From Bacilli bacterium (GTDB taxonomy: Bacteria; Bacillota_I; Bacilli_A; RF39; UBA660), in contig JAFSDH010000004.1 in the NCBI GenBank assembly GCA_017436345.1, positions 2,661 through 66,660 on the forward strand: 64,000 nucleotides of DNA, written 5' to 3'. Numbering within the stretch: the first letter of the stretch is position 1; the number at the start of each line of letters is the position of its first letter. Both the position numbers and the translations under genes were made by a program. A model generated the notes under the pieces. The model was not told the DNA's origin. It did not search any database and was given only the letters and a program-made list of their open reading frames with translations. Shown in pieces: positions 44,185 to 48,010 of this stretch.

Positions 44185-44258
44185 GGGTCTATAGCCAAGT
44201 GGTAAGGCATGGGACTGCAACTCCCCGAGCGTTGGTTCAAATCCGACTAGGCCCTCCA
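44185..44258 (+). tRNA. tRNA-Cys (anticodon GCA)
   Basis: GGGTCTATAGCCAAGTGGTAAGGCATGGGACTGCAACTCCCCGAGCGTTGGTTCAAATCCGACTAGGCCCTCCA. Has anticodon loop CTGCAAC, a T-arm GGTTCAAATCC, and an encoded CCA. Confidence 0.9.
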
Positions 44259-44362: not shown

Positions 44363-44668
44363 ATGTTAAAAAAGGGAGAAGAAAATAAAACAATAGAAGA
44401 ATTAACAAAAGCTGAATTTGCCAAACTTGATATTCAATATTCAAGAACACATATTGGTAAGTTAATGTATCGTGCTAGTTTAACACCTATAATAATAACT
44501 ATTTTCTTAGTTTTCTATATATTCTCATATGGATTAGCTAATGGTTACATAAATATAATGGATATTGGTAGTGTTTTATTGATTGGACTTGGAATATCAT
44601 CAATTACTAAAATGTTATACTATCAAAGTCTAAATAGTTTTTATAGAAATATGAACAAAAAAAAATAA
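44363..44668 (+). CDS. small two-TM membrane protein (hypothetical; bacteriocin-immunity candidate by position only)
   Basis: 101 aa with a GGAGG RBS and two hydrophobic helices. No family recognised. Confidence 0.4.
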   Translation: MLKKGEENKTIEELTKAEFAKLDIQYSRTHIGKLMYRASLTPIIITIFLVFYIFSYGLANGYINIMDIGSVLLIGLGISSITKMLYYQSLNSFYRNMNKKK

Positions 44669-44679
44669 AGGTTTAACCT

Positions 44680-45018
44680 TTATTTTTTTGATGTTTTCTT
44701 TTTAGTTGTTGTTTTTCTAGGAGCAGCTTTAGTAGTTACTGCTTTTTTTCTATTGTTAGGAATTTCCATTTTGATAATAAAGAATCCTAATTTTATTAAA
44801 AGAGCAATGATAATAAAAATAGGTAAAAGAGCTAAATAGAATTCACCAACTTTATCAGAATTATCAACTACGAATTCTAACATTTCGATTAATTCAGTAT
44901 TATATCCTAAAACAATTATGAATAATAATGATAACCAAATAATAGCTTCAACGACACCAATAAATAATTCTTTCCATAAAACTTTAGTAAACTTAACTTT
45001 TTCATTAAAAATATTCAC
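44680..45018 (-). CDS. small membrane protein with Lys/Thr-rich C-terminal tail (hypothetical)
   Basis: 112 aa with two TM helices and the tail RKKAVTTKAAPRKTTTKKKTSKK. GAGGTG RBS on the minus strand. Confidence 0.4.
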   Translation of the reverse strand: MNIFNEKVKFTKVLWKELFIGVVEAIIWLSLLFIIVLGYNTELIEMLEFVVDNSDKVGEFYLALLPIFIIIALLIKLGFFIIKMEIPNNRKKAVTTKAAPRKTTTKKKTSKK

Positions 45019-45167
45019 ACTAACACCTCACTTCTTATTTTATTCTAATATTATTATATATTAAAAAAAAATAAAAATAAAGTACTATTATTTATTTTAT
45101 GTAAAGTGTAAAAAAAGTAGGAAATAAAACTTTTATCGCTAATGATATTTAGTGAGGAAGTGATAAG

Positions 45168-47252
45168 GTGTTTAAAGAATATCAATGTGTTTTACAAGAA
45201 GGAACTAAAGATTGTGGGGCATGTTGTCTTTTAACTATTATAAAAACATATGGTGGTAATGTTAGCTTAGAATATTTAAAAGATTTAACTAGAACTACAA
45301 AAGATGGTACAAACGCTTTTCTAATAATGAACGCAGCAAAGGAGATGGGATTATCATCAAAAGCCGTTCGAGGAAGTGTTTTTGACTTAGATGATAATAT
45401 GTTTCCATGTATAGCACATGTAATTATTAATAAAAATATGGGACATTTTATTGTTATTCATAAAATAGATCGCAATAAAAAAATATTAACAATAGCAGAT
45501 CCTGCCGTAGGTAGAAGATTAATGTCATACACAGAATTTTTAGAAATAACAACAAATCAATTTTTATTATTCACTCCTATAAAAAAAATACCTAATTACG
45601 AAATGAAAAATAAATTAAAAGAATCTATAATAAATATAATTAAAGAGAATCTAAATGTTTTATTAACAATCTTTTTATTTTCTTTAATATGTGTTGTTAT
45701 AAATATAATTACTTCTTTTAATATGCAATTTATCATAGATAATGTTATTTCATATAATTCTAAAGATAATCTAAAATTAATTATGATAATTATGATTTTT
45801 TTAATGATAATAAAAGTTATAAATAATTATATTAGAAATAACTTATTAAATTATATAAATCATAATTTAGACCAAATAATGATTAAAGATATTTTTAAAC
45901 ATATTATTTCACTTCCTTACCTATATTATAAAAATAGAACAACTGGCGAAGTAATATCTAGAATAAATGACTTATGCGAAGTACGAGATGTAATAAGTAA
46001 ATTATTTATCACCATTTTTGTTGATATAACTTTAGTAATTTTTGTATTAATTTCATTAATATCAATAAATATAAAATTAACTATTATTGGAATAATAATA
46101 ATGATATTATATGGAATAATATTAATTATATTTAATCCAATTATAAAGACCTATATTAAAAGACTTAAAGATGATAGTGCAACAGTTAATTCATATTTAC
46201 ACGAATCTATTACAAGTATAGATGTTATTAAAGGATTATCCATAGAAGATAATATTTATAATAACTTCAGTAAAAAATATTTAAAGTATTTGAATAATAA
46301 TTTTAGATTTAATGTAATATATAATATTCAAAATTTATTTAAAGAACTAGTAGATTACCTAGGAGTAATATTTATAACTATTGTAGGAACATACTTTGTT
46401 TTAAGAAATGATATGAATATTGGTGAATTAATTACATTTAATAGTCTAATAATATATTTCTTAGACCCAATAAAAAATATATTAAATTTTGATATAGATA
46501 TAAAAAAAGTAAAAGAAACTATTAAAAGAGTAAATGAATTATATAGTATTAAAAATGAAAATCTAGAATTTAATGAAAAATATACTAATAAAGACTTCAA
46601 AGGAAATATTAAAATTAATGATTTATCATTTTCATATGATAATAAAAATAAAATCTTAGAAAAAATAAAATTAAATATTAAAAAAGGAGAAAAAGTATTA
46701 ATAACTGGAAATAGTGGAAGTGGTAAAAGTACATTAGTAAAAATTCTTATGAAGTATTTAGATATTGAAAATCAAAAAATAGAAATAGATGAAAAAGACA
46801 TTAATTATTTTAATATTAAAGAATTAAGACAAAAGATAAGCTATATATCACAAAATGAAATTTTATATAACGATACTTTATATAATAACGTGACAATAAA
46901 TCGCTATATAGATTATGATGAATTTTTAGAAATATGCAAGTTAACTAAAGTCGATGAAATAATGAATAAAAATTCATTTGGTTCTTCTTTAATGATTGAA
47001 GAAAATGGTTTTAATTTAAGTGGAGGAGAAAGACAAAGAATTATGTTAGCCCGTGCATTAGTTAAACAAGCAGAAATATATATTTTAGATGAGAGCCTAA
47101 GTCAAATAGATGTTGCTAAAGAAAGAGTTATACTAAAAGATTTATTTAAAAAATATAAAGATAAAACTTTTATTGTAATATCCCATAGAAATGATAATTC
47201 AGACTTATATAATCGAAAAATAGAATTAAAAAAAGGAAAAATTAATGATTGA
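45168..47252 (+). CDS. bacteriocin ABC exporter with N-terminal C39 double-glycine peptidase domain (ComA/LagD type)
   Basis: GTG start. C39 catalytic pattern Q...DCGACC, GHFIVIH and ADP. Six-TM domain. NBD motifs GNSGSGKST (Walker A), LSGGERQR (signature) and IYILDES (Walker B). Confidence 0.88.
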   Translation: MFKEYQCVLQEGTKDCGACCLLTIIKTYGGNVSLEYLKDLTRTTKDGTNAFLIMNAAKEMGLSSKAVRGSVFDLDDNMFPCIAHVIINKNMGHFIVIHKIDRNKKILTIADPAVGRRLMSYTEFLEITTNQFLLFTPIKKIPNYEMKNKLKESIINIIKENLNVLLTIFLFSLICVVINIITSFNMQFIIDNVISYNSKDNLKLIMIIMIFLMIIKVINNYIRNNLLNYINHNLDQIMIKDIFKHIISLPYLYYKNRTTGEVISRINDLCEVRDVISKLFITIFVDITLVIFVLISLISINIKLTIIGIIIMILYGIILIIFNPIIKTYIKRLKDDSATVNSYLHESITSIDVIKGLSIEDNIYNNFSKKYLKYLNNNFRFNVIYNIQNLFKELVDYLGVIFITIVGTYFVLRNDMNIGELITFNSLIIYFLDPIKNILNFDIDIKKVKETIKRVNELYSIKNENLEFNEKYTNKDFKGNIKINDLSFSYDNKNKILEKIKLNIKKGEKVLITGNSGSGKSTLVKILMKYLDIENQKIEIDEKDINYFNIKELRQKISYISQNEILYNDTLYNNVTINRYIDYDEFLEICKLTKVDEIMNKNSFGSSLMIEENGFNLSGGERQRIMLARALVKQAEIYILDESLSQIDVAKERVILKDLFKKYKDKTFIVISHRNDNSDLYNRKIELKKGKIND

Positions 47253-47667
47253 TATAAATGATTATAAGCAAATATATAATAAAAAAATAAAGAGCGTTAC
47301 TAAAATATGGGTATTGTTTATAATTTTTATAATAATAGGAATTATTTATATAAATAATAGTTTTAAATATATAAGATATTATTCTAATTTAGGAGAGTAT
47401 AAAAAAGATAATCTTTATATATATGTTTTAATAGATGATTTAAATAAAATAACAAAGAATAATAAAGTATTAATAGAAAATAAAGAATTTGCTTACAAGA
47501 TTAAAGAAATTAGTGAAGAAAATATAAATATAAATAATAATTATTACAAAGAGGTAAAACTAGATATAAAAGATAATAAATTTATAAATAATGAAGTAAT
47601 AAATATTACTATTAAAATCGAAGAATTAGATTTAATAAAATATATATATAAAACCATATGGAGGTAA
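47245..47667 (+). CDS. small N-terminally anchored protein co-translated with the exporter (accessory or immunity candidate)
   Basis: 140 aa, overlaps the exporter stop by 8 nt, one TM (IWVLFIIFIIIGIIYI). It is far shorter than typical HlyD-like accessory proteins, so the function is unclear. Confidence 0.4.
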   Translation: MIDINDYKQIYNKKIKSVTKIWVLFIIFIIIGIIYINNSFKYIRYYSNLGEYKKDNLYIYVLIDDLNKITKNNKVLIENKEFAYKIKEISEENININNNYYKEVKLDIKDNKFINNEVINITIKIEELDLIKYIYKTIWR

Positions 47668-47668
47668 G

Positions 47669-47812
47669 ATGACAGAGATAAGAGAAAAAGAATTAGAAAA
47701 CGTTAAAGGTGGAGGAATATCTCCTTGGATTGCTTTTGGAGTAGGTGCTGCAGTTGTATTTTTAATTGGACTATATGATGGGTTTGTTCGTCCTTTAGGA
47801 TGTCGTGAATAA
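47669..47812 (+). CDS. class II bacteriocin precursor with double-glycine leader (peptide 1)
   Basis: Not in the ORF track because it is only 47 aa. GGAGG RBS, then MTEIREKELENVKGG / GISPWIAFGVGAAVVFLIGLYDGFVRPLGCRE. The leader fits the consensus: hydrophobic at -4, -7, -12 and -15, Glu at -8, GG at -2/-1. The mature peptide is hydrophobic and Gly-rich with GxxxG-like spacing. Confidence 0.8.
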   Translation: MTEIREKELENVKGGGISPWIAFGVGAAVVFLIGLYDGFVRPLGCRE

Positions 47813-47814
47813 AG

Positions 47815-47982
47815 ATGATAGAAACTATAAGAAGTGAAGAAGAATTATTTATAATAACAGGAGGAATAAATCTTAGTGGTAATATTATAAATGCTATTGT
47901 TTCAGGAGCAAAAATAGTTTTAGAACTAGGAAGAAGTCTAGGATCAGCAATAAGAAGAAGTATAACTGGAAACGTTTGTTAA
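47815..47982 (+). CDS. class II bacteriocin precursor with double-glycine leader (peptide 2)
   Basis: Not in the ORF track because it is only 55 aa. MIETIRSEEELFIITGG / INLSGNIINAIVSGAKIVLELGRSLGSAIRRSITGNVC. It starts 2 nt after the peptide 1 stop and is followed by a terminator. Confidence 0.7.
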   Translation: MIETIRSEEELFIITGGINLSGNIINAIVSGAKIVLELGRSLGSAIRRSITGNVC

Positions 47983-48010
47983 AAAAAGACCAATTTAAGG
48001 TCTTTTTTTC
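47983..48010 (+). terminator. rho-independent terminator closing the bacteriocin operon
   Basis: Stem AAAGACC (47985-47991) pairs with GGTCTTT (47999-48005), followed by a T-run. Confidence 0.75.

Follow-up and report, generated by a model that had tools for sequence, protein, structure and literature searches.

A putative two-peptide export operon of class IIb type, carried almost universally in an uncultured small-genome gut lineage

The operons of class IIb bacteriocins, which include lactococcin G/enterocin 1071, plantaricin EF and JK, and lactobin A/cerein 7B, place two precursors with double-glycine (GG) leaders next to each other and supply them with a dedicated ATP-binding cassette (ABC) exporter of the C39 peptidase type and with an accessory protein. 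Their mature peptides measure about 30-40 amino acids (aa), one being hydrophobic and the other cationic and amphipathic, and a GxxxG motif is found in each; antibacterial activity depends on both peptides being present in roughly equal amounts. Two-peptide bacteriocins are normally strain-variable accessories of a genome and come with an immunity gene of their own. A similar architecture occurs in a 64,000-nucleotide stretch (hereafter the window) of contig JAFSDH010000004.1, GenBank assembly GCA_017436345.1, from a Bacilli bacterium of the order RF39. Here, between tRNA-Cys and ftsA, four genes on the + strand and a closing hairpin span positions 45168-48009 and encode a peptidase-containing ABC transporter (PCAT), an accessory protein of 140 aa and two small precursors, pepA and pepB. 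An earlier reading of this DNA, made from the sequence only, had picked out an exporter, a 140-aa gene and two small linked open reading frames (ORFs); all four stand where it had placed them, and the peptide sequences are exactly those it quoted. The cassette departs from the known class IIb operons in being a near-universal, single-copy core of an order and not a strain-variable accessory locus, in having a pepB that belongs to no described family, and in lacking an immunity gene in the window. The single invariant Cys in the tail of each peptide suggests, in addition, a disulfide between the chains, a bond not known to us from any class IIb bacteriocin. The interpretation favoured here, at somewhat better than an even chance, is that of a PCAT-dependent two-peptide export operon of class IIb type whose product would be a membrane-active heterodimer, probably a bacteriocin.

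Both precursors carry double-glycine leaders. The pepA leader is MTEIREKELENVKGG, and it is followed by a mature part of 32 aa which is hydrophobic, has a net charge of 0, places its GxxxG at G34/G38 and ends in the tail ...RPLGCRE. The pepB leader is MIETIRSEEELFIITGG, and the mature part of 38 aa is amphipathic with a net charge of +3, a core LELGRSLGSAIRR, a GxxxG at G39/G43 and a C-terminal Cys. The general rule for such leaders (hydrophobic residues at -4, -7, -12 and -15 and Glu at -8), invoked in the sequence-only reading, is followed fully by pepA; in pepB, positions -4 (I), -7 (L) and -8 (E) conform to it, and -12 (R) and -15 (E) do not. Within the genus, dN/dS values are 0.09-0.33 for pepA and 0.12-0.41 for pepB (dS roughly 0.1-3, mostly 0.9-2.5). 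Judging from these low ratios and from the matches of a pepB profile in 383 of 401 genomes of the host order, the small ORFs are real genes under purifying selection.

The two peptides are conserved in a characteristic manner. Residues G34, D37, G38, P42 and C45 of pepA are invariant across 19 species, and L36, E37, G39, R40, S41, G43, S44, R48 and C55 of pepB across 26 species, so that the GxxxG motifs, which the earlier reading had cited as frequent in class IIb peptides, hold in both chains between species. Orthologue statistics were drawn from 121-125 unique sequences (42 loci of the pepB alignment, 80 further loci that were fetched, and the rest from genome searches). The commonest mature length among them is 31 aa for pepA and 40 aa for pepB, and the mean net charge of the mature peptide is +1.0 and +3.4, respectively. 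Conservation sits in the C-terminal core of the mature peptide (...IGxxDG(F/Y)xRPLxC in pepA and ...LE(L/I)GRS(L/I)GS(A/S)xRR......C in pepB) and not in the leader, and the N-terminal halves are variable. One tail Cys per peptide is kept in all 122 unique related pairs; the correlated loss of both Cys was considered as a test of pairing and is uninformative, as both are present in 122/122.

The pepA sequences of the lineage appear to form the fringe of the TIGR03949 family of class IIb bacteriocins (lactobin A/cerein 7B). All of the 11 pepA orthologues compared match this family, the best of them with an E-value of 3.9e-8, and orthologues reach its cut-off; the pepA of the window matches NF038034 with 1.6e-4. 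For example, the orthologue at the locus of Coprobacillus sp. CAG:605 is named 'class IIb bacteriocin, lactobin A/cerein 7B family' by NCBI, and the pepB orthologue of the same locus is named 'hypothetical protein'. Since the pepA, pepB and accessory sequences of the window are all in NCBI nr, and the CAG:605 pepA orthologue carries a name there, the earlier description of the operon as unannotated has to be dropped. Profile searches of the PDB with pepA and pepB returned only a leader match to CtA, the PCAT1 substrate, and a chance match to fatty acid synthase. In-frame fusions of pepA and pepB with an internal second GG leader are present among metagenome proteins (P0024 and P0049, 101-102 aa); these may be read-through calls or real fusions.

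The pairing of the two peptides was examined by inter-peptide covariation, using mutual information with average product correction (MI-APC) over 122 pairs and 1505 column pairs, with 100 shuffled pairings as reference. The second, fourth and sixth ranks (0.221, 0.161 and 0.136; the shuffled pairings reach at most 0.134) link the flanks of the first glycine of the pepA GxxxG with residues within the GxxxG of pepB; a pepA Ala is accompanied by Ile/Val in pepB, and a pepA Ile by Leu. Shuffling destroys the phylogeny, and the association was hence retested as independent contrasts on the exporter tree. There, the pepA residue changed independently 11 times; in about 6 of these contrasts pepB differed in the same direction, in 0 in the opposite direction, and in about 5 it showed no difference (sign test, p ~0.03). 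This evidence, modest but directional, supports a packing of the GxxxG faces of pepA and pepB against each other. The top-ranking pair of all joins the -3 leader positions of both peptides (MI-APC 0.318 vs the same shuffled maximum), which suggests either that gene conversion has acted on the leaders or that both have adapted to one C39 domain. An AlphaFold2 (AF2) model was made from the natural read-through of pepA into pepB, with the stop codon between them read as Gly, for 24 species and with a same-genus orthologue as the first row; it contains two long helices that span both GxxxG motifs, at a helix predicted local distance difference test (pLDDT) of 78-89.

The same data bear on the alternative that pepA and pepB are two independent one-peptide bacteriocins sharing one exporter. 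Multi-bacteriocin loci in which one PCAT serves several GG peptides are common, which would allow such an arrangement. However, the peptides here come as A then B, in one copy each, and are adjacent and on the same strand in 120 of the 122 unique pairs; residues flanking the GxxxG motifs co-vary between them, and each has exactly one tail Cys in every pair. Independent action is hence very improbable.

The exporter conforms to the PCATs over its whole length. It matches the Pfam families Peptidase_C39 (3e-31), ABC_membrane (1e-45) and ABC_tran (1e-28), and aligns full length to PCAT1 of Clostridium thermocellum (4ry2, E 1.7e-108) and to ComA of Streptococcus (8hf4, E 1e-98), which bears out the earlier assignment as a C39-ABC exporter. 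Its DCGACC, GHFIVIH and ADPAVG stretches align with DCGAAC, AHFVVIY and ADPGKG of PCAT1, which we take to be the stretches of the catalytic Cys, His and Asp in PCAT1/ComA. The Walker A motif (GNSGSGKST) and the signature (LSGGERQR) are also preserved, and the C39 peptidase domain, the transmembrane domain and the ATPase are all intact. Unlike PCAT1 and ComA, the exporter would handle a conserved peptide pair instead of CtA or ComC, and it stays under the cut-off of the family TIGR01193. Nine of 10 same-genus genomes have an exporter of 66-79% identity, and in other genera the identity is at most 49%, as vertical descent predicts. In the genome of the window (G000, with contigs C1, C2 and C3; other G numbers denote other genomes and L numbers related loci), a weak second Peptidase_C39 match lies at C2:112529-112738 (23.1 bits, E 6e-5) in a 210-aa open frame without an ABC part. 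In G025, a genome of the same order and another family, the exporter gene (C25:22371-24397) is broken by one TGA and five TAA over two pieces and the pepB match is kept (5.4e-15); this locus looks like a decay of the system.

The accessory protein has no match to any Pfam or NCBIfam family, including the HlyD family of Pfam. Its AF2 model, built with 20 orthologues (pLDDT 89.9), consists of a helix at residues 4-39 followed by beta strands that form a small beta-barrel. The top Foldseek matches in the PDB are MacA of the MacAB-TolC pump (5nik_D; E 0.017, probability 0.99), BesA, pneumococcal Spr0693, MexA and AcrA, with weak E-values of 0.017 or worse, and the model superposes on the beta-barrel of membrane-fusion proteins (MFPs) over about 82 residues with a root-mean-square deviation of 3.3-4.1 A. 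Like the MFP adaptors MacA, BesA, Spr0693 and the HlyD type, it would have an N-terminal anchor and a beta-barrel, and its gene directly follows that of an ABC exporter; unlike them, it is modelled with no alpha-hairpin or lipoyl domain. It also differs from the LcnD/ComB-type accessory proteins, which have about 450 aa, in being limited to 140 aa and a beta-barrel. Because the modelled transmembrane helix and beta-barrel resemble the MFP fold, the protein is read as a miniature membrane-fusion-type adaptor or transport helper; the sequence-only reading had listed it among the candidates for immunity, a role which these MacA/BesA-type matches speak against. It is found in 73 of 109 related exporter-bearing loci and is absent or truncated in the others (about a third), and hence the invariant core of the system is the exporter with pepA and pepB.

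On the favoured interpretation, the C39 domain would cut both precursors after the GG, and the transporter would expel the mature peptides, the 140-aa protein serving it as a miniature adaptor. Outside the cell, the helices would pair via G34xxxG38 of pepA and G39xxxG43 of pepB, and the tail Cys of each chain may staple them into a covalent heterodimer. The heterodimer would then insert into a target membrane and either permeabilise it or block a membrane protein there. Other bacteria are the most likely targets, which would make the product a bacteriocin; antagonism of this kind is considered only slightly favoured. Many relatives encode a membrane-anchored paralogue of pepB, which probably acts by mimicry to protect the producer.

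Several results weigh against this interpretation. The cassette is near-universal and nearly always single-copy in the order, and no immunity gene lies beside the peptides in the window or in its genus, where pepB is followed by the terminator and ftsA. In searches with profiles, pepB matched no curated family and no related PDB chain. The pepA of the window reaches 19.3 bits (E 7.4e-4) with TIGR03949 and so remains below the curated cut-off of 21.5; likewise, the exporter scores 454.2 bits with TIGR01193 (peptide cleavage/export ABC transporter), below the curated cut-off of 523.85, and thus seems to be a diverged branch of the PCATs. The contrast test is small. The AF2 fusion model is of moderate confidence (mean pLDDT 68.6, predicted template modelling score 0.48) and is read for secondary structure only. 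Finally, the proposed stapling requires a disulfide to form in the anaerobic gut. The earlier proposal of a likely novel two-peptide bacteriocin is therefore retained in part: the class IIb anatomy is borne out by the PCAT, the accessory protein, the adjacent GG/GxxxG peptides and the orthologues in TIGR03949, but the inheritance as a core gene and the missing immunity gene do not fit it.

In good-quality genomes of the order, the pepB profile matches 365 of 380 (~96%), and 142 of 145 genera are covered. Among 300 genomes across the class, 36 match, and all of these belong to the family of the window except G030, a 0.9-Mb genome of another family with the same gene order at its locus. In the GTDB genome set, the pepB alignment covers 42 species, all of them uncultured metagenome-assembled genomes from gut, rumen or caecum labelled Bacilli, Tenericutes or Mollicutes; the carriers include Candidatus Fimihabitans intestinipullorum and Coprobacillus sp. 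CAG:605, and carrier genomes measure 0.6-1.9 Mb. A word-indexed search found only 5 relatives of pepB, and an exhaustive profile search of 1.84 billion representative proteins was needed to reveal the family, which comprises 441 clusters at 50% identity (E <=1e-3). All same-genus contigs extending far enough keep the order exporter-accessory-pepA-pepB, which is also seen in other genera. The neighbours of the cassette vary by genus; it is followed here by ftsA, and by an rpsU-like gene in 35 of 89 related loci with a readable downstream gene. The cassette is thus a near-universal, single-copy, lineage-restricted core trait and not a typical bacteriocin island. A literature search found no published study of this system.

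Such inheritance, together with the missing immunity gene, makes a core module that does not serve antagonism the main rival. Here the A-B heterodimer would serve the producer itself, or an obligate association with a host or partner; it might be a component of the membrane or envelope, or a permeabiliser that releases nutrients of neighbours for an auxotrophic organism with a small genome. The near-universal, single-copy and lineage-restricted occurrence would follow, as would the retention of the cassette in such reduced genomes, its housekeeping surroundings (ftsA here, rpsU in many relatives), the conservation of the mature C-terminal core rather than of the leader, and the lack of an immunity gene in the genus and of any guard ORF in ~60% of related loci. 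However, all the sequence features fit class IIb bacteriocins, the anchored pepB-mimicking paralogue of 47 of 125 loci is most easily explained by a toxic product, and we know of no PCAT-exported peptide pair with a housekeeping role. This rival is hence held to be unlikely.

The 101-aa and 112-aa membrane-protein ORFs upstream of the exporter, which had been suggested as immunity genes, occur in 2 of 10 and 4 of 10 same-genus genomes, respectively, and in none of the other genera. As they are patchy in the genus and the peptides are near-universal, they are not co-inherited with the cassette and were rejected on co-occurrence. A different candidate is seen in the relatives, where a third ORF of 44-70 aa lies at or just past the pepB stop in those 47 loci. 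It has a basic N-terminus, one transmembrane helix and then (L/A/S)GxxxGTxxR, often with a tail Cys. In an hhalign comparison, the profile of this ORF matched mature pepB with a probability of 94.8% (E 5e-8), and the match takes in the GxxxG, the Arg and the tail Cys. The third ORF is on this evidence a pepB paralogue with a membrane anchor in place of the leader, and it is plausible that it acts as a guard by capturing pepA or by occupying the place of pepB. A hidden Markov model of the third ORF, run over the genome of the window, matched only pepB itself and no separate homologue; the genus has lost this guard. Natural immunity through a missing UppP, which is reportedly the receptor of lactococcin G, was also considered and is not supported, as the genome has uppP. 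In the CAG:605 locus and a near-identical one (L053, 4172-4309; L054, 2930-3067), a third GG-leader peptide, MSNEELMSVNGG|RLNITISYSYNSVMGYLYTLGRRIGTYFNRLFH, replaces the anchored third ORF; it shares an LGxxxGTxxxR core and appears to be the pepB-like paralogue in an exported form.

A broader proposal may be put forward from these observations, which we regard as doubtful. The exporter, pepA and pepB would be an ancient, vertically inherited and near-essential module of the whole order, with a disulfide-stapled, GxxxG-paired two-chain peptide as its product. Rather than an optional weapon, this would be a standard tool for permeabilising neighbours or the own envelope, for example to obtain nutrients that the reduced genome cannot make. 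Protection, where present, would be provided by the anchored mimic of chain B, which is absent in lineages such as the genus of the window.

GG-leader peptides may also be signals, and one or both peptides could be pheromones sensed by an AgrC/ComD-type kinase with a LytTR regulator encoded elsewhere. The known GG pheromones have about 17-27 aa and act as single peptides; with 32 and 38 aa in mature form, an invariant GxxxG in each and covariation between them, pepA and pepB resemble bacteriocins. No histidine kinase or response regulator is found within the locus, which hence does not have the arrangement of ComCDE/BlpCHR-type systems with an HPK10 kinase and a LytTR regulator beside the peptides. 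The sequence-only reading had noted no obvious three-component system, and this is correct for the locus. Elsewhere in the genome, an unlinked two-component pair at C3:54780-56787, adjoining a cold-shock-like gene, consists of an AgrA/ComE-type Response_reg+LytTR regulator followed by a multi-transmembrane HATPase_c_5 kinase. Of 101 genomes sampled in the family, 86 have LytTR regulators, which are unlinked to the cassette; in the one genome where a kinase-regulator pair lies 5 kb from it, an unrelated transporter stands between. The presence of such regulators in the family favours signalling, as does the role of the exporter class, since PCATs are reported to export ComC/BlpC-type pheromones as well (PMC7595303). 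With the pair unlinked and the peptides of bacteriocin type, a pheromone function is nevertheless improbable.

The class IIb architecture is here fixed in a gut lineage of uncultured bacteria whose genomes are very small, with a B chain of an undescribed family and a Cys that is invariant in both chains. If the product is a bacteriocin, the 441 clusters would constitute a large untapped family with conserved cores and variable N-terminal halves, and immunity by mimicry could be tested on a natural example, the anchored paralogue. Otherwise, PCAT export would have a physiological use that is new. Either way, peptides of 32 and 38 aa can be synthesised and provide a handle on the biology of uncultured organisms.

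The features of the operon and of its upstream flank are given in the table. The stop of the exporter gene and the start of the accessory gene overlap by 8 nt, and gaps of only 1 nt and 2 nt separate the accessory gene from pepA and pepA from pepB; these overlaps and gaps show translational coupling of the four genes in one tight operon.

Table. Positions of the operon features and of the upstream flanking genes in the window
Feature	Position	Strand	Remarks
tRNA-Cys	44185..44258		
Small membrane-protein ORF	44363..44668		101 aa
Small membrane-protein ORF	44680..45018		112 aa
Exporter (PCAT) gene	45168..47252	+	694 aa, GTG start, GAGGAAG just 5'
Accessory protein gene	47245..47667	+	140 aa, N-terminal transmembrane helix and small beta-barrel (model)
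pepA precursor gene	47669..47812	+	47 aa, leader 47669-47713
pepB precursor gene	47815..47982	+	55 aa, leader 47815-47865
Intrinsic terminator-like hairpin	47981..48009	+	11-bp stem, 7-nt loop, U-tract; end of the operon, 5' of ftsA

The hairpin had been called a strong terminator. It is present, but its strength is only moderate: RNA folding gives a free energy of -10.9 kcal/mol and a z-score of -3.64, 1 of 200 shuffled sequences folds equally well, and the hairpin is not among the calls of a consensus terminator scan. A comparable GACC...GGTC hairpin lies 3' of pepB in the relative locus L007. Beyond the hairpin of the window follow ftsA (48081) and then ftsZ. On the other side, a major intrinsic protein (MIP)/aquaporin-like gene (~232 aa) lies directly 5' of the exporter in the same-genus loci L004, L005 and L008-L012; the window is without it, and only 149 nt (45019-45167) separate the 112-aa ORF from the exporter gene. 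The G+C content is 17-19% in the exporter and accessory genes (45500-47500) vs 25-36% in the flanking housekeeping genes. Because the cassette is inherited vertically, this low value may reflect the composition of membrane proteins rather than a foreign origin.

Among the other GG-leader ORFs of the genome, only a 71-aa ORF at C1:21336-21551 is plausible; its leader is MKYMNDELDLEALTQVTGG, and the rest of it is hydrophilic. This ORF, which is not linked to the cassette, may encode another substrate of the PCAT. Its neighbours are an ORF presumed to encode acetate kinase and what we take, by eye, to be a gene for an alpha/beta-type small acid-soluble spore protein (C1:21025-21234); in a genome of 1.7 Mb, the latter would hint at sporulation.

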